This document shows, in pieces, positions 9,843 to 48,693 of a stretch of 64,000 nucleotides of DNA (its first letter is position 1; each line of letters starts with the position of its first letter). The stretch is taken from positions 384,001 to 448,000 of the forward strand of contig OY969699.1 of NCBI GenBank assembly GCA_963702025.1, written 5' to 3'. This DNA is from an uncultured bacterium (GTDB lineage Bacteria > Babelota > Babeliae > Babelales > Vermiphilaceae). Made by a program: the position numbers and the translations under genes. The notes under the pieces are model-generated. The model was not told where the DNA came from and made no database searches. It saw only the letters and a list, made by a program, of their open reading frames with translations.

Positions 9843-10811
9843 TTAAACCAGCTTCCGGCTCAAAAAAAACGCTTTTACCTTCTCATTTTGCGCATAATCA
9901 GCAGGAGTTTTTTTATATTTATCTTCTAAAGAGCAGTCTGCCCCTTGTTCAAGCAAATACTCAATTACCTTAAGGTTTGGAGGCCAATGATACATTTTCT
10001 CTTCTTCCATTTTTTCAACTATTATATGCAATGGCGTGAGTCCATCTTTATTCTGCGCGTCAACATCCGCACCCGCTTTACACAGTAATCGTATACTATC
10101 AAAATAAAAGTATCTGCATGCCTTGTGCAGAGCTGTTTCTTTATGTATATCGCATGCATTACTATTGGCACCATTTTTTAGGAGCCAAATAATAGCTTTT
10201 TTTCTGATCTGTGTGTTTCCTAATGCCATCCAAATGAGTGGTGTTTCATTATAGAGATTACGTGCCTCTATGTTGGCACCATACTGCTTAAGTATATCAG
10301 CAGCTTTTGTATCTCCTTGGAGTAAGCAATGAAAAAGTGCGGTATTGTCAAGCATGGCATCGTCAGGATAATTCACATCCGCAATACCTTTTTCAAGCAG
10401 TGATTTTATGAGTGCTACTTTAGTTTCCTCTACCATCGCATAAGACATGGCTAAATTCAAAAGGACTCTATTATCAATCTTGATAATATCAGACTGAATT
10501 TTTGTATAGTGCTTACCTAATTTTATAATCGGATAACTAAGAGATAGATTTAGGAGAGCTATCAAAGGCATGGGCGCAATCTCTGAACTGATAACTACGA
10601 AATTTGCCAACCCTATTCCGGCACAAAAAAATGTGCCGGCTAAAATCATGCCCTCTTTATCATGCTTAAAAAGAAATTTTGCAGCCTGAGCATAATTATA
10701 GGCTTCTTGCGCATATTCATGAATCATTTTTTTAGTATTATCAGATAAAAAATTCATACCAAAAAAATGTGTTGGCAGTATCAATAATAAAATAAAAATG
10801 CTTTTTTTCAT
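9843..10811 (-). CDS. Ankyrin repeat protein with signal peptide and TM hairpin
   Basis: ETPLIW, ETALHKA, GLTPLH and GADVDAQN repeats. Confidence 0.85.
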   Translation of the reverse strand: MKKSIFILLLILPTHFFGMNFLSDNTKKMIHEYAQEAYNYAQAAKFLFKHDKEGMILAGTFFCAGIGLANFVVISSEIAPMPLIALLNLSLSYPIIKLGKHYTKIQSDIIKIDNRVLLNLAMSYAMVEETKVALIKSLLEKGIADVNYPDDAMLDNTALFHCLLQGDTKAADILKQYGANIEARNLYNETPLIWMALGNTQIRKKAIIWLLKNGANSNACDIHKETALHKACRYFYFDSIRLLCKAGADVDAQNKDGLTPLHIIVEKMEEEKMYHWPPNLKVIEYLLEQGADCSLEDKYKKTPADYAQNEKVKAFFLSRKLV

Positions 10812-14485: not shown

Positions 14486-15250
14486 TTAGTAAAGCGGAGG
14501 CGCTGATGGCGCATAGGCAACAACGTTTTGTACTGCTTGATTAATGGACGCGCGTAATTTCTTTTTATCTACTTTGCTGCGACACAAAGGGCAGTTTGCC
14601 TTATTTTCCGTGAAAAACCAACGTTCGGCACAATCAACGCAGATATCATGGCCGCATGGGGTAAGAAATACCCGAGTTACTTCATTAAAACTTTCCATAC
14701 ATACGCAGCAATCTGATGATGGATAATATTGTTGTGCAGGTGAAGAAGATGCAGAACTTGGCTTTTCATTCTGGAGTGATTGATAAATTTTTATATACAA
14801 ATCCTGGCCAATGTAGCCGCTAAAAATTCCTTGTTCTAGATATGTTGATTGCATGCACTGATAAACCAGCCAATCATAAATATCTTGCGCTATTTTACGC
14901 GCTTTTATTTGATTGGTTAACTCTTTGGCAAAGTAATAGGCTTCCTCTTTAATAAAATCAAGTATTATGCCAAGCATTAATTGGTCAACATAATCCACCG
15001 GATATTCTTTTTCATATGAAAAGGAGCTCCAGTTCCAGGCAAGTTCATAATTGTTTGAAATGCCAATTTCATTTTTTACAGCATTACCAACATTAAATAA
15101 CCGTGGGTTAGTATGATTGGGATAAAACCAATATTCAAGACATTGGGTGGTGTAACTAGCGATATATCTTTCCGGTATTGTTTTGGCTGCAGCATAACTG
15201 TTAAAAATTGCGGGAGCAAAAAATAGCAATAACAAAGTACTAGAGCGCAT
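14486..15250 (-). CDS. Secreted C3HC4 RING finger protein (eukaryote-like E3 candidate)
   Basis: CVC...PCGHDICVDC...W...CPLCR, signal peptide, C-terminal PSAPPLY. Confidence 0.85.
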   Translation of the reverse strand: MRSSTLLLLFFAPAIFNSYAAAKTIPERYIASYTTQCLEYWFYPNHTNPRLFNVGNAVKNEIGISNNYELAWNWSSFSYEKEYPVDYVDQLMLGIILDFIKEEAYYFAKELTNQIKARKIAQDIYDWLVYQCMQSTYLEQGIFSGYIGQDLYIKIYQSLQNEKPSSASSSPAQQYYPSSDCCVCMESFNEVTRVFLTPCGHDICVDCAERWFFTENKANCPLCRSKVDKKKLRASINQAVQNVVAYAPSAPPLY

Positions 15251-15344: not shown

Positions 15345-16331
15345 TCAAAAAAGAATGCTTACTCCCGGCAGTGCGGTGCGGAGCATTGTTTTAGTTTCTT
15401 TACTTAATGGATTGTAGCGAAGATCAAGCAATTGCAAGTTAGTGAGTCCAGCCAAAGCTTTTCCATGAATTTGTTGAATTTTATTGTTGCCAAGATTAAG
15501 CACTTCCAAGTTAGCAAGTCCAGCGAAAGCCTGAGCATCAATTTGCTGAATTTGGTTATTGCTAAGATAAAGCCATTCCAAGTTATTTAGTCCGGCGAAA
15601 GCTTCCGCAGGAATTTGTTGAATCTCATTGTCGTGCAGATGAAGAAGCTTGATTGTTTCTTTATTGGGAATATTTTCTAAACCTGCAAGATTATTGATTG
15701 CTAAATGAGACAAATCAAGCACCCCATTTTTGTTGACCTGAATTTGCTGCGGCCGATAATCAAGATAATCTTGGATAGAAAAACCAAAGCTGCCGGGTAT
15801 CTGGTCCCACTTAATTTCTTTGCCGCTGAGCAGATAAGTGTAAATGCTGTTTTTAACGGCGGTTCCCAGTTCGCCAGTGCCTATTTTCTTCACAACTGTT
15901 TCAGTCAATTTCTCATCAGCAAGAATTCTTGAAGCAGCGAATGTCAGTGCAATTTTTAAATCAAGAAAGTCGGCTGCCTTAATAAAGGCAATCAAATCAT
16001 TGATTTTCACTTCTTTATCAACGGCATCGAGTAGTAGCTTATCGCCTTTTAAATCTTTGTGAAGGTAAACTGACCACATAAAAGCCGCAATATCTTGCAG
16101 TGTTTTGCTTGGGATATCTTTAAATTCAACTCTTTTTGCAGTTGCTTCTTGCCCGCCCATGGCAAGAAGATCTTTTATTTGCTCACTTTGCAAAGCTATC
16201 TCTTCAGGTGCCTGGAATTCTTGATTGTCGGGCCCAACAAGAGTAATCACTTGCGCCTGTTTCTCCATGCCAATGATATTAAAGCCTGTTGCAAGGCAGA
16301 TGAGGGCTACTAATAACTGTTTTCTTAACAT
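15345..16331 (-). CDS. Secreted Skp1/BTB-POZ-like + LRR protein (copy 1)
   Basis: ITLVGPDNQEF...IALQSEQIKDLL...IPSKTL...IKAADFLDL resembles Skp1. 24-aa LRRs follow. Confidence 0.8.
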   Translation of the reverse strand: MLRKQLLVALICLATGFNIIGMEKQAQVITLVGPDNQEFQAPEEIALQSEQIKDLLAMGGQEATAKRVEFKDIPSKTLQDIAAFMWSVYLHKDLKGDKLLLDAVDKEVKINDLIAFIKAADFLDLKIALTFAASRILADEKLTETVVKKIGTGELGTAVKNSIYTYLLSGKEIKWDQIPGSFGFSIQDYLDYRPQQIQVNKNGVLDLSHLAINNLAGLENIPNKETIKLLHLHDNEIQQIPAEAFAGLNNLEWLYLSNNQIQQIDAQAFAGLANLEVLNLGNNKIQQIHGKALAGLTNLQLLDLRYNPLSKETKTMLRTALPGVSILF

Positions 16332-16364
16332 GATTTCACCTAAAAAATGGTAAAAATATCAATA

Positions 16365-17351
16365 TCAAAATTCAATATATACTTCCGGTAGTGCAGTGCG
16401 GAGCATTGTTTTAGTTTCCTCGCTTAAAGGATTGTTGTGAAGATAAAGCCATTGCAAGATATTAAGCTCTGCAAAAGCTTGCGCAGGAATTTGTCGAATT
16501 TGATTGCTGGAAAGATAAAGCATTTGCAAGTTATTAAGTCCGACAAAAGCTTGCGCAGAAATTTGTTGAATTTGATTGCTGGAAAGATAAAGCCCTCCTA
16601 AATTATTAAGTCCGGCAAAAGCCTGTGCAGGAATTTGTTTAATTCGATTCTCGCCAAGATCAAGATCTTCGATTGTTTCTTTTTTAGGAATGTTTTGCAA
16701 GCCTGCAAGATTATTGATTGCTAAATTTCTCAAATTAAGCCGTCCATAGTCATTAATCTGGAATACTTGCGGGCGATAATCAAGATAATCCTGAACAGAA
16801 AAACCAAAGCTGCCGGATATCTGGTCCCACTTAATTTCTTTGCCGCTGAGCAGATAAGTGTAAATGCTGTTTTTAACGGCGGTTCCCAGTTCGCCAGTGC
16901 CTATTTTCTTCACAACTGTTTCAGTCAATTTCTCATCAGCAAGAATTCTTGAAGCAGCGAATGTCAGTGCAATTTTTAAATCAAGAAAGTCGGCTGCCTT
17001 AATAAAGGCAATCAAATCATTGATTTTCACTTCTTTATCAACGGCATCGAGTAGTAGCTTATCGCCTTTTAAATCTTTGTGAAGGTAAACTGACCACATA
17101 AAAGCCGCAATATCTTGCAGTGTTTTGCTTGGGATGTTTTTAAATTCAATTCTTTTTGCAGTTGCTTCCTGCCCGCCCATGGCAAGAAGATCTTTTATTT
17201 GCTCACTTTGCAAAGCTATCTCTTCAGGTGCCTGGAATTCTTGATTGTCGGGACCAACAAGAGTAATCACTTGCGCCTGTTTCTCCATGCTAATGATATT
17301 TAAACCTGCCGCAAGGCAGATGAGGGCTACTAATAACTGTTTTCTTAACAT
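16365..17351 (-). CDS. Secreted Skp1/BTB-POZ-like + LRR protein (copy 2, tandem paralog)
   Basis: N-terminal part nearly identical to copy 1; LRRs divergent. Confidence 0.8.
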   Translation of the reverse strand: MLRKQLLVALICLAAGLNIISMEKQAQVITLVGPDNQEFQAPEEIALQSEQIKDLLAMGGQEATAKRIEFKNIPSKTLQDIAAFMWSVYLHKDLKGDKLLLDAVDKEVKINDLIAFIKAADFLDLKIALTFAASRILADEKLTETVVKKIGTGELGTAVKNSIYTYLLSGKEIKWDQISGSFGFSVQDYLDYRPQVFQINDYGRLNLRNLAINNLAGLQNIPKKETIEDLDLGENRIKQIPAQAFAGLNNLGGLYLSSNQIQQISAQAFVGLNNLQMLYLSSNQIRQIPAQAFAELNILQWLYLHNNPLSEETKTMLRTALPEVYIEF

Positions 17352-17619
17352 GATTTCTCCCAAAAATGATCAACATATATTGTCTACTTGTAATAATAAC
17401 AGGATGGCTTCAATAAAGTCAATTACAATTAGAAATAAATAGTTAAAAAGTGCTGTAATAGAGGGGTATTTAGCGCTAATGCCCCGATAGCCAGGATTCA
17501 GTGAAAATACGTGTCTCTTTGGGGGGGTAAGCGCTTTACCGCTAAAATGTATTGTTTTACGATTACTGGCTTTGATAAAATATTGATAAGAAATTAGGGT
17601 TAATAAAAGGGGTTGGCCA

Positions 17620-19062
17620 ATGAAAAGTACTGTGCGATTGTTAGCATTATTCAGCGTAGGGGCATGCAATCTTTCTTGCATGGAAATGCCAAAAAAACTT
17701 ATGACACAAGAAGTTGCTATAAGAAGTCCTGAGCAAGTGCTTGAGGCAGGAAAACCAATACATTTTTCTCCTGAGTCTAACCGGCAAAATAATATCGGTG
17801 TAACAGAAAAAAACGTTATGGGGCTCACGAGCGAGATCTTTAATGAAGTATTATTAAAGCAGCTTCAAAAAAGAGGATTTCAAGGAGAAATTACCAATCA
17901 AAGTGAGCCGACGGTCCTTATATTTTCCGAATTGGATCGCTTAAAGGCAAATGTTATTAGTGAAAGAAGTCACATAAAAACCTATTTTCAATCATATATA
18001 GATTTTGTGACACAAAAAGCAAAAGAGTTTGTGCGGCAGAATAAAAAAGTTATCGTAATTAATTTTTGGTACAAATATGATGCCGATTCTCTGCGCTTTA
18101 TTCAACAAAATGGCCGCTGGAATAGAATTGCCGAAAGATTGCAAACTCATCCCAATAAACGATTTGTGCAAGATTATCCTCGCTTAGTAGAAAGATTGCT
18201 AACCCCCGAAGGGTTGCGCGAGCATGCCAAAATACTCGATTATTTTAAAGAAGAAACGGCAGCGCTTTCACCGCAAGGCATTCATATGTTTTATTTTGAG
18301 TTCCCCATTCCAAATGTGGTGATTCCTCCAAATGAATCGGATTATCCCTATTTTAAGAAAGAATTCGATCAATCCAATTATAATGCTTTAGAAATGACCC
18401 GCTTGGTTAATTTACTGCTGCAAGAATCTGCTAAAAAGGCTCCTCGCCCGCAAGTACCACCGCGCCCTGAAGAGCGGCCGTTGATGCCACCGCCCGTGCC
18501 GCCACGGGAGGCCGCTGCGCCACAAATTGGCAAAGAGCTTTCAGCGGAGCAATTGGCCGAGCAGATTAAAAAAATTCAATCAGAGCTTCGCAAGCTTACC
18601 CTGCAAGCCGGAAAAAGACCGAATCCTGAGGATGCACTAAAAATTGCTCAGTTTACACAGGTAACAAGCGAATTGGAAAAAGAACTTATTGCGCGAGAAA
18701 AAATGGCGCAACCACAACCAAAGAAAATAGCACCGGCGATCAAACCACCCGAAGAGGTTCAGCGGCCAGAACCGGAAAAAGAGGCGGAAGAAAGCGCTTT
18801 GGCTAAACAATTAAAAGAAAGAAAGAGCGGATTAAGAAAAACGCCTGAATTGGAAGGAATAAGACCATCAAAACAGCAAGAATGGGAAAGTATGAATGCC
18901 CAAACATTGGAAAAGGAGCTTTCTTATCTTAATCAACAGTATACGAAATTGATTTTTGCAGGAGGAAGTGGCACTGCTCAGGCAAAACAACTCGAGGCTG
19001 ATATTAACTTTGTGCAAGCGCTATTAAAAAAGATTTCACCGGTAAATGAATTTGAGTGGTGA
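17620..19062 (+). CDS. Secreted proline-rich/coiled-coil protein with a WH2-like motif
   Basis: SP|MEM, PPPVPPR, ALAKQLKERKSGLRKT and C-terminal EFEW. Confidence 0.65.
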   Translation: MKSTVRLLALFSVGACNLSCMEMPKKLMTQEVAIRSPEQVLEAGKPIHFSPESNRQNNIGVTEKNVMGLTSEIFNEVLLKQLQKRGFQGEITNQSEPTVLIFSELDRLKANVISERSHIKTYFQSYIDFVTQKAKEFVRQNKKVIVINFWYKYDADSLRFIQQNGRWNRIAERLQTHPNKRFVQDYPRLVERLLTPEGLREHAKILDYFKEETAALSPQGIHMFYFEFPIPNVVIPPNESDYPYFKKEFDQSNYNALEMTRLVNLLLQESAKKAPRPQVPPRPEERPLMPPPVPPREAAAPQIGKELSAEQLAEQIKKIQSELRKLTLQAGKRPNPEDALKIAQFTQVTSELEKELIAREKMAQPQPKKIAPAIKPPEEVQRPEPEKEAEESALAKQLKERKSGLRKTPELEGIRPSKQQEWESMNAQTLEKELSYLNQQYTKLIFAGGSGTAQAKQLEADINFVQALLKKISPVNEFEW

Positions 19063-19082: not shown

Positions 19083-19870
19083 TTATAATCGCAAGTCAGT
19101 GCTGCCGGGCAAAGAAGCGCCAATCTCTTTTTTGTTTGCATTGTTCAGTGGGTTGCTGCTTAAAGCAAGCAGTTCCAACTTTTTAAGCGGAGCAAATGTT
19201 CCGGGAGCGGTCTGGATTATTTTATTATTAGCCAGAATTAAGCGTTGCAGCCTGGTGAGGCGAGAAAAAGTTTGTTCAGGAACTTGAGTAATGCGATTCT
19301 GATCAAGACTAAGATATTTCAAATTGGTGTTCTTCTCTAATGTATCAGAAGGGATTTGGGTAATACGATTTTTGGAAAGAATGAGTTCTTTCAATTGATT
19401 TAATCCGGCTAAAGCTTCATGAGGAATTGCGCGTATTTTATTGTCATTGAGCCATAGTATTTCAAGATTTTTTAGCCCGTCGAAAGCTTTTTTAGAAATT
19501 TTCTTTATCTTATTTTTGCCTAAATAGAGTGTATGCAAAGTGAAAAGGGATTAAAAGCATGAGAACGTATACGTTTAATTTCGTTATTGTGAAGAGAGAG
19601 CTCTTTAATGCATACAAGCGTCAACGGAGTGAAGGCCTGGGCATCGTACAATGATGGAGTCTGCCAAAAAAGATGAGTAGGAACTTTCTTAAGGCTCATC
19701 GTGGTAAGCCGCAATGTGAGAGCAATCTCTTCCTTTTTTTTCTCTTCCGGTAAGCCTTTCAAGGTAAGAGTAGTAGTAATCTCTTCTCTTTCCCCTTGAG
19801 GTAAGCGTTCCATAGCAAGCGTAGTGGCGAAGGAAAATACTAAAAGTTTTGTTAGGTTATTTTTCAACAC
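19083..19870 (-). pseudogene. Secreted LRR protein split by a frameshift near 19540
   Basis: ORF 19520..19882 (SP + first LRR) continues in another frame as LHTLYLGKNKI... in ORF 19083..19538. Confidence 0.7.
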
Positions 19871-20272
19871 AATGTCTCCCAAAATGTATAAATTTTACCT
19901 GAATTATATCAGAACAGATGCGCAAGACAAGAAGCAAAAGAATATTCTATTTCGCGAAAAAAAATGTTTTTTCTTGCATTGCTCTCCCAGTGATAAATAA
20001 ATGAAGTTGCTGAGAGTAATGATGGTGAACAATGATTTCATCTTTTCCCTATTTCTAAAATTCTATATATGTTCCCGAATAGGTATTGCTCAGCTTCTTA
20101 GTTTCTTCATTAATTGGATTACTTTCAAGGAAAATTTCTTTTATACTGTTTCTATTTGAAACTTTGAAATAATTGTTTGTTTAATCTAGTGCAAATATAA
20201 AATTGACAAATAAGATAGTTGTGCTAAATTAGGGGTAAAGTATGTTATATTATCTCAAATTTGGAGGTTTTT

Positions 20273-47844: not shown

Positions 47845-48693
47845 ATGAATATGATTTTACACTATTTTTCATTATGCTTGATTCTCAGCTTGTGGCAGGT
47901 TGCCGCAATGGAACTGCCTCCTGCTGGCGAGTTAAAATCAAAAGCATCGATAATTGCAAAAAAATCGGTGTATGAACAAAAGAACACAATGTATAATGAC
48001 ATTGTGGATCTTATTAATAATAATGAAGATTTAAATGCGCTGATCTATTGCAGAAATGGGAGAACCGCTCTTGGGCATGCTGCTTTTAATAATAAATTAG
48101 AGGAAGCAGCATTATTGCTAGATCATGGTGCAGATCCTAATGCTGCCCCAACCAATGAAACTCCCCTTATTTTGGCAGTAGAAGGTGGTCATCCTGCAAT
48201 GGTTAAATTGCTGACGAGCCGTGGGGCAAATCCTAATATTGGTCCCCGCTTTCCGTTGCACACTATTTGTTACTGCGTAAAAGATGTGCTTGACGCAGAG
48301 AAAATAGCAGCACGGCTTGAGATGGCGCACTGGCTTTTAGAAAATAACGCTGATCCTGAATTAAAAGATGCCAAAGGAAATACGCCAATTTTTTATCTTT
48401 TAGAGCCCACTGATTTTACTGCCTGTTATGCTCATTGTCCGGCAGGATGTGCTGTTCATCCGGATTCAGCACGTCAGCGAGAAATCATTTTTAATCAGCG
48501 TAAAGAATTGATAGGTGAGTTTATCCATTTAATCAAATTGGAAACAAAAAATAATCAGGGCAAAACAATAGTTGAATTTGCAACATCACCATCGGCGTAC
48601 CCATTTTTAGGTGCGCACGCTAGTCAAGATGCGATGCGCAAAGAATTGGGTGAATTTATAGAATCATTTTTTGTAACTAAGAAATTAATATGA
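47845..48693 (+). CDS. Secreted ankyrin repeat protein
   Basis: GRTALGHAA, ETPLILAV and GNTPIFY. Confidence 0.85.
   Translation: MNMILHYFSLCLILSLWQVAAMELPPAGELKSKASIIAKKSVYEQKNTMYNDIVDLINNNEDLNALIYCRNGRTALGHAAFNNKLEEAALLLDHGADPNAAPTNETPLILAVEGGHPAMVKLLTSRGANPNIGPRFPLHTICYCVKDVLDAEKIAARLEMAHWLLENNADPELKDAKGNTPIFYLLEPTDFTACYAHCPAGCAVHPDSARQREIIFNQRKELIGEFIHLIKLETKNNQGKTIVEFATSPSAYPFLGAHASQDAMRKELGEFIESFFVTKKLI

Follow-up and report, generated by a model that had tools for sequence, protein, structure and literature searches.

Skp1/Elongin C-like domains joined to leucine-rich repeats in a tandem gene pair of an uncultured Vermiphilaceae bacterium

Two adjacent genes, here called A and B, are found in a 64,000-nucleotide stretch (the window, C1:384001-448000) of the single-contig genome of an uncultured bacterium of the Vermiphilaceae (1,596,033 bp, 39% G+C). 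Each encodes a protein in which a leader is followed by a Skp1/Elongin C-like domain and a module of leucine-rich repeats (LRRs). The genes belong to a real and well-defined family, and its likely use, the hijacking of host protein tagging, would be a variant of a trick known from amoeba-infecting chlamydiae. By sequence profile and predicted structure, the N-terminal domain stands beside Skp1 and Elongin C as a third member of their branch and is not a bona fide Skp1. The balance is about even that A and B are exported single-chain ligase receptors, in which the N-terminal domain would dock on a host cullin and the LRRs would present host proteins.

Gene A (15345-16331, minus strand) and gene B (16365-17351, minus strand) are intact open reading frames (ORFs) of 328 amino acids each, that of B counted from its ATG. 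GGGAGA precedes this start, and a TTG four codons upstream falls inside the ribosome-binding stretch. B is followed by A after a spacer of 33 nucleotides (nt), and A also has a ribosome-binding stretch (AGGTGA). The proteins of these tandem paralogs are identical at 274 of 328 residues (84%). An initial annotation, made from the letters of the sequence, had placed the two copies 1020 nt apart with about 320 nt identical between them. An offset of exactly 1020 nt was confirmed, and at the coordinates that had been claimed (15798-16115 versus 16818-17135) the two copies share their longest identical run, of 318 nt. When the 113 differing sites were shuffled 20000 times among 987, a run of 318 was never reached and the maximum was 112. 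The run is included in a near-identical tract (15777-16331, minus strand) of 555 nt with 11 differences between A and B; the remainder of A (15345-15776) has 102 differences to B in 432 nt. Synonymous divergence (dS) between the genes is 0.047 in the N-terminal domain and 0.61 in the C-terminal part, which is about 12-fold lower in the adaptor half. Differences at third codon positions number 5 of 171 versus 42 of 136 (p = 6e-12).

Domains of A and B

The POZ domain of A (15879-16256, minus strand; residues 26-151) is mixed alpha/beta, with its counterpart in B at 16899-17276. In structure comparison and in profile searches of the PDB, its homology is seen only with queries restricted to the domain, because full-length inputs are dominated by the LRRs. 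The full-length model of A retrieved LRR proteins only in Foldseek and VIA-align, and a full-length profile searched against the PDB was likewise swamped by LRRs. In Pfam, the domain of B matches Skp1_POZ at 24.7 bits, above the cut-off of 21.9, and that of A falls slightly below it at 20.5 bits. Relatives were collected by an exhaustive search with residues 22-200, which gave 88 cluster representatives at E <= 0.001 (34 of them at E <= 1e-10). With gene B added, the family set has 89 members. Skp1_POZ was matched by 51 of the 89 at E <= 0.01 (best 6.6e-21), and BTB (PF00651) by two at the same threshold (best 5e-4, a weak similarity). As a single sequence against the PDB, A matched only Elongin C (E 0.006). 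A profile of six N-terminal domains from its own genome gave matches to Elongin C (2e-8) and to Skp1 (1e-7 to 1e-5), which lie within positions 17-130. The Elongin C match covers profile positions 17-115 and ends at the aligned aanfLd motif.

Predicted structures point the same way. The AlphaFold2 (AF2) model of full-length A has a predicted local distance difference test score (pLDDT) of 91 and a predicted template modelling score (pTM) of 0.79. The model of the N-terminal domain alone, built from a 93-row alignment, has a pLDDT of 89 and a pTM of 0.84. In VIA-align, every one of the 50 matches shown for the domain model, at Z 12.6 to 11.3, is to a complex of Skp1 or Elongin C, and the top Foldseek matches are Skp1 and Elongin C too. 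Skp1 aligns over 100-115 residues with Z 12.6-11.4 and a root-mean-square deviation (rmsd) of 2.5-3.7 Å (2.5-3.0 Å for the alignments of 107-115 residues), and Elongin C over 86-91 residues with Z 11.6-11.3 (rmsd 2.3-2.8 Å over 87-91 residues). As in Skp1, the model has an A5 helix and, between A3 and A4, an additional helix. A POZ fold had been proposed for this domain, and profile searches and structure prediction both give a fold of the Skp1/Elongin C type. The initial term "Skp1-like" is apt for the signature and the fold. It does not extend to the PxPN motif by which Skp1 contacts Cul1; since this motif is absent, "Skp1/Elongin C-like" is the preferred label. A homodimer prediction with two copies of the domain returned "no answer" (score 0.00) and is uninformative either way.

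In Skp1, the PxPN motif lies in strand B3 and two C-terminal helices, alpha7 and alpha8, bind the F-box, and Elongin C is described as being without helix A5 (PMC1257465). The change Phe109Ala in Elongin C abolishes binding to Cul5, and the cullin binding of both adaptors is described as bipartite, with an F-box or Cul-box partner needed (PMC3779351). Strand B3 of A and B, RVEFKDIPSKT, is close to the aligned Elongin C stretch. The best-kept core element of the domain is the A4 helix, AA(D/N)(F/Y)LD, in which L123 is 97% conserved. It aligns with AANFLD of Elongin C, and its aromatic residue matches Phe109. Because both the fold homology and this equivalent of Phe109 are retained, the domain may well be capable of docking on a cullin, a suggestion drawn from homology.

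The LRR module of A (15348-15863, minus strand; residues 157-328) has its counterpart in B at 16368-16883. It is built from a conserved N-cap (RYYxL ... FSIQDYLDYxP), 24-residue repeat units and a C-terminal cap helix. Pfam LRR_8 is matched at 2.3e-37 in A and 7e-40 in B. In VIA-align, model residues 166/187-328 align to LRR ectodomains at Z 14-16. The repeats are of the 24-residue "typical" class, LxxLxLxxNxIxxI, and are predicted to form a curved solenoid with caps. Thus, the proposed fusion of an adaptor-type domain to LRRs is borne out by Pfam and by the model, and the four LRR strings quoted in support of it had been read correctly.

The differences between A and B in this module were also proposed to lie mainly at exposed x positions, and this appears to be the case. 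With positions 2, 3, 5, 7, and 8 of each 24-residue repeat taken as concave, 17 of 20 concave sites differ, compared with 19 of 82 other sites of the LRR region (Fisher p = 5e-7). An even spread is also disfavoured within LRR1-3 when the concave positions are compared with non-scaffold positions only (13 of 15 versus 14 of 33 differ, p = 0.005). The ratio of nonsynonymous to synonymous divergence (dN/dS, Nei-Gojobori) is 2.6 for the concave codons, with only 9.3 synonymous sites, and 0.23 for the remaining codons of that region. These patterns suggest diversifying selection on the LRR face.

An intramolecular mimic of an F-box, with the RYYxL helix and FSIQDYLDY lying in the F-box groove, was considered and rejected as the main explanation. 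The segment aligns with LRR N-terminal caps, and it also accompanies the LRR module in proteins without a POZ domain. A tandem array of three leader and LRR genes at L007:2506-4986 has the RYYxL...SIQDYL cap and no POZ domain. The N-cap therefore belongs to the LRR module.

Export and possible role

The leader of A (16269-16331, minus strand) comprises residues 1-21, MLRKQLLVALICLATGFNIIG, followed by ME, and the same arrangement is present in B at 17289-17351. In the AF2 model, it is a hydrophobic helix at residues 4-18 with low pLDDT. An N-terminal hydrophobic stretch is present in 69 of the 89 family members, and at least 4 of the other 20 start at an apparent post-leader methionine. Genome-wide, 824 ORFs have such a stretch, and 238 of them have M-[EQD] directly after it, against 26 for a control window. 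The logo around this methionine, which stands at a median of residue 22, has [AGS] at -1, E at +1, and P at +3. A and B fit the resulting [AGS]-M-E-x-P motif (IIG-ME, IIS-ME). This lineage-specific junction could mark the cleavage by signal peptidase, serve as a sorting tag, or contain an internal start. Eleven ORFs with a leader junction occur in the window (for example at 16266-16271, 17286-17291, and 17680-17685), and the same junction is present in the L007 array.

Members of the phylum are widespread parasites of protists. In one cultured representative of the Dependentiae, 44% of coding sequences are reported to carry signal peptides, putative effectors included (PMC6561590). Because of the putative Sec-type leader and the biology of the phylum, export of A and B to the host is likely.

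In the favoured reading, the A and B proteins would be exported by way of the Sec-type leader and would reach the host. There, the Skp1/Elongin C-like domain may dock on a host cullin-RING ubiquitin ligase. The concave face of the LRRs would bind host proteins and present them to the ligase. This role is consistent with the modular fusions of the same N-terminal domain to LRRs, to Peptidase_M48, and to ankyrin-type repeats, and with the RING, ankyrin, and other LRR genes nearby.

A number of points weigh against it. No conserved PxPN was found in strand B3 across the 93-row alignment. The C-terminal domain of Skp1 (PF01466) was matched by 0 of the 89 members at E <= 0.01, and there is no F-box family among the 22 Pfam families that the members match. 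The structural alignment to Skp1 ends near residue 144-151 (model residue 120-130; Skp1 128-141), so the F-box-binding helices are not reproduced. A Sec leader alone takes a protein only to the periplasm. On the side of the LRRs, the concave dN/dS has very few synonymous sites behind it, and turnover of repeat units inflates the apparent divergence, because units within a gene (83% nt identity for B2/B3, 78% for A2/A3) resemble each other more than units at matching positions in A and B do (74-75%). The proposal of variation in the LRRs is thus upheld for its concentration on the concave face, and part of the divergence is due to turnover of repeat units. Finally, the mosaic of a near-identical 5' half and a diverged 3' half is not seen in two other tandem pairs of the same genome.

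A second reading, which is unlikely, needs no cullin. The POZ domain would pack or oligomerise an exported or surface LRR binder, such as an adhesin or receptor decoy, that acts outside the host cytosol. A Sec-type leader suits such a protein, the 24-residue LRRs are best matched by extracellular LRR ectodomains, and LRR modules with the same N-cap occur without a POZ domain. POZ folds are also described as self-associating in other families (PMC1257465). Against this, sequence and structure point to the monomeric adaptors Skp1 and Elongin C and not to the self-associating BTB-ZF or T1 domains. In addition, the same leader is found in this genome on RING, ankyrin, and RBR-like proteins. The known eukaryotic roles of such proteins are intracellular.

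It is also conceivable, and unlikely, that the domain is a decoy adaptor that does not bind cullins. It would instead bind host F-box or BC-box proteins or Elongin B, and would sequester them or tether cargo that is bound by the LRRs, the protease, or the ankyrin repeats. Strand B3 and its surroundings are Elongin C-like (RVEFKDIPSKTL versus the aligned Elongin C stretch), and that B3-side sheet of Elongin C pairs with Elongin B (PMC1257465). The model also has counterparts of helices A4 and A5, which are part of the partner-binding groove. The metalloprotease fusion would suit the bringing of an enzyme to a host complex as well as it suits a ligase role. However, the F-box-binding C-terminal domain of Skp1, which no member matches in Pfam, has no structural match either.

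History of the pair

The differences between A and B are best accounted for by an old duplication and a later, recent conversion of the 5' half. The duplication would have come first, and gene conversion would then have made about 555 nt at the 5' end alike again; meanwhile, the LRR units of A and B would have turned over and diverged. Gene conversion is suggested because dS is far lower in the adaptor half and because the upstream spacer has diverged. The 33-nt spacers upstream of the two genes have 16 of 33 mismatches without gaps and about 70% identity when aligned with gaps. The initial annotation had offered gene conversion or recent duplication as the cause of the constant adaptor. The dS values and the diverged spacer favour the former and speak against the latter. 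A donor for the LRRs was looked for elsewhere in the genome and none closer was found; A and B are mutual best matches there (78% nt identity).

A history without conversion, in which a recent duplicate has an LRR half that seems old through shuffling, duplication, and replacement of units within each gene, would account for LRR units being closer to each other within a gene than to their counterparts in the other, but it is improbable. The non-repetitive C-cap unit is just 86% identical, dS is 0.70 at residues 196-225, before the regular repeats, and the non-coding spacer directly upstream of that tract of near-identity reaches only some 50-70% identity. Shuffling of units accounts for none of these three.

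Another genome has a tandem pair with the same mosaic (L008; dS of 0.043 versus 1.14). A constant adaptor with variable LRRs, as had been proposed, therefore describes the A/B pair and the L008 pair and not the two other tandem pairs mentioned above. Since only two of the four tandem pairs examined show it, the mosaic appears to be a recurrent event and not a rule of the family. The A/B pair would be a clean case, in bacteria, of gene conversion that has affected only part of a tandem duplicate.

These observations can be joined in a broader and more tentative reading, which is possible and no stronger than that. The N-terminal domain would be a portable docking domain that binds host cullins directly, without a host adaptor or F-box protein. 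It would be joined to LRR, ankyrin, or protease modules and exported by the lineage-specific [AGS]-M-E-x-P leader, which is shared by about 240 proteins of this genome. Conversion would keep the docking half constant while the LRR face diversifies. Such an arrangement, if true, would give bacteria their own version of variable receptor families, with a ubiquitin ligase as the chassis.

Family, known systems and surroundings

LRR_8 is found in 75 of the 89 family members and Peptidase_M48 in two. Nine relatives were inspected, including three of the shortest, and a further 12 were aligned; none is a bare Skp1 or Elongin C, and all except P0088 show a leader or C-terminal modules of the family type. 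Doubled architectures occur among the members. One relative (L017) has an ankyrin-type tail, with its repeats recognised by eye. There are eight matches to the N-terminal domain in the genome of A and B. These are the A/B pair, a second tandem pair (C1:748996-751562), a third pair (C1:552.4-555.5 kb), an M48 fusion (C1:1446597-1447958), and a remnant. The M48 fusion matches Skp1_POZ at 28.8 bits, above the cut-off of 21.9. Sequences with the same domain fused to a Peptidase_M48-type (HExxH) metalloprotease are L002:998-2359 (minus strand), L014:1437-2834, and P0078. The M48 fusion is conserved in a genome of the same genus and is doubled in one metagenomic protein.

In a survey of the phylum, which covered 261 genomes, nearly all of the same order, the N-terminal domain was matched at E <= 1e-5 in 25, and six of the seven other members of the genus were positive. 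In other genomes of the phylum, groups of four to six close-set matches were observed at G198:C1:558175-565677, G104:C1:471058-475551, and G121:C1:405008-412613. The distribution is patchy, multicopy, and tandem, like that of the birth-and-death families described by Domman et al. (PMC4209131). Pfam lists in the public annotation of relatives give LRR families only, and one of five longer relatives is named "Leucine-rich repeat (LRR) protein". Because these lists and names give LRRs only, current annotation does not reveal the family.

Among described systems, the PEX1 family of Protochlamydia comes closest; it is reported to have 73 members with an N-terminal BTB domain and C-terminal LRRs (Domman et al., 2014, PMC4209131). 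As in the present family, a eukaryote-like N-terminal domain of the POZ superfamily is joined to C-terminal LRRs in an amoeba-associated bacterium. Both are multigene families with tandem duplicates and a copy number that varies between relatives, and recruitment of host proteins to ubiquitin ligases was proposed for PEX1 as well. The Parachlamydiaceae were stated in that paper to be the only prokaryotes known to have a BTB domain. The two families differ in several ways, as judged from the published description of PEX1. The present family has the Pfam balance given above, Skp1_POZ over BTB, and it occurs in another phylum. It has a Sec-type leader and not a type III signal, and it includes protease and ankyrin fusions too. 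The idea of a single-chain adaptor-receptor is thus not new, as it is known from eukaryotic BTB proteins and from these BTB-LRR families.

Skp1 (PF03931 and PF01466), the adaptor of SCF or cullin-RING ligase 1 (CRL1), is the best structural match, with 21-26% identity over about 110 residues at Z 12.6, and its AAxYLD-type helix is kept in the family. Unlike Skp1, the family lacks PxPN in B3 and a detectable F-box-binding C-terminal domain. In the family, the adaptor-type domain and its putative substrate-binding domain form a single chain, which also has an export leader. Elongin C, the adaptor of CRL2 and CRL5, is the best sequence match, and its B3 region and AANFLD helix align closely. Elongin C is a stand-alone protein of about 110 residues that ends after the AANFLD helix, and its partners are Elongin B and a SOCS-box or VHL-box receptor. 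In contrast, the family domain continues into A5-like and further helices and is fused to the LRR module.

The Cul3 adaptors with a BTB domain (BTB-kelch, MATH-BTB, and the BTB/Skp1 proteins of poxviruses and giant viruses) also combine a cullin-docking POZ domain with substrate-binding repeats in one chain. In a library of viral structures, the nearest matches were viral Skp1 and BTB proteins, with only two at E <= 0.001. No long-form BTB extension is evident in the present family, in which the leader of A runs straight into strand B1, and its repeats are LRRs and not kelch or MATH. Bacterial F-box effectors, such as AnkB of Legionella with host Skp1 (PDB 5k35), likewise have a eukaryote-like module joined to a repeat domain, and a presumed redirection of host cullin-RING ligases. 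They mimic the receptor and need host Skp1, whereas this family would mimic the adaptor itself.

A comparative paper on TM6 lists WD40, F-box, LRR, and TPR domains (PMC4776705). The words BTB and Skp1 are absent from the main text of this paper and of PMC6561590 by word search. What the main texts of these two papers give on host manipulation is limited to Sec export and lists of eukaryote-like repeat domains. No report of a Skp1/Elongin C-like and LRR architecture in bacteria was found in the literature, supplements aside. If adaptor mimicry is true, it would extend the BTB-LRR precedent of Protochlamydia to a second phylum, another POZ subtype, and another export route. It would also provide a testable handle on host manipulation, namely which cullin is used and which proteins are targeted.

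The genome also has three ATP/ADP-translocase genes, as would suit a parasitic member of this phylum. The effector-like neighbours of A and B are a RING-finger protein, ankyrin proteins (9843-10811 and 47833-48693), and further LRR genes. Directly downstream of A, an ORF at 14486-15250 (minus strand) encodes a protein that is hydrophobic at its N-terminus and has a RING finger at its C-terminal end (zf-C3HC4_3, 7e-10). Five more RING or RBR-like ORFs were found in the genome by a regular-expression scan, including a tandem pair at C1:73511-76745. A minimal ligase made up of the family protein and a neighbouring RING protein was considered and set aside, as the regular-expression scan found no RING ORF in 17 loci, 12 of them from other genomes.

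A third leader and LRR gene without a POZ domain is present at 19083-19882 (minus strand). Near 19520-19545, at a T run, its coding sequence breaks into two frames that overlap, the sign of either a frameshifted pseudogene or a sequencing error. Its start region resembles the starts of A and B. Between B and this gene, a protein of 480 amino acids is encoded at 17620-19062 (plus strand). It has the leader junction LSC-ME-MP and a proline-rich, charged second half, and a Pfam scan of it gave no match.

A promoter-like site is located upstream of B (17393-17422, minus strand), with TTGACT and TATTAT separated by 18 nt and with a TG. It matches a consensus and no more, and such sites are no more numerous in the region than expected from shuffled sequence. 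A terminator-like site was looked for in the 33-nt spacer between B and A, and none was found. Four soil-metagenome runs in which the genome has a low share gave eight contig pieces of 151-224 nt at a depth of 2-3, and none of these spans the A/B locus. The junction of the stop of B and the start of A is spanned without differences by a soil-metagenome contig (16330-16505), which possibly comes from the same sample that gave the genome assembly. Over the start of B, a soil contig (17208-17431) has 6 differences in 224 nt, and the seven other pieces are exact. This contig suggests that a close strain variant is present.

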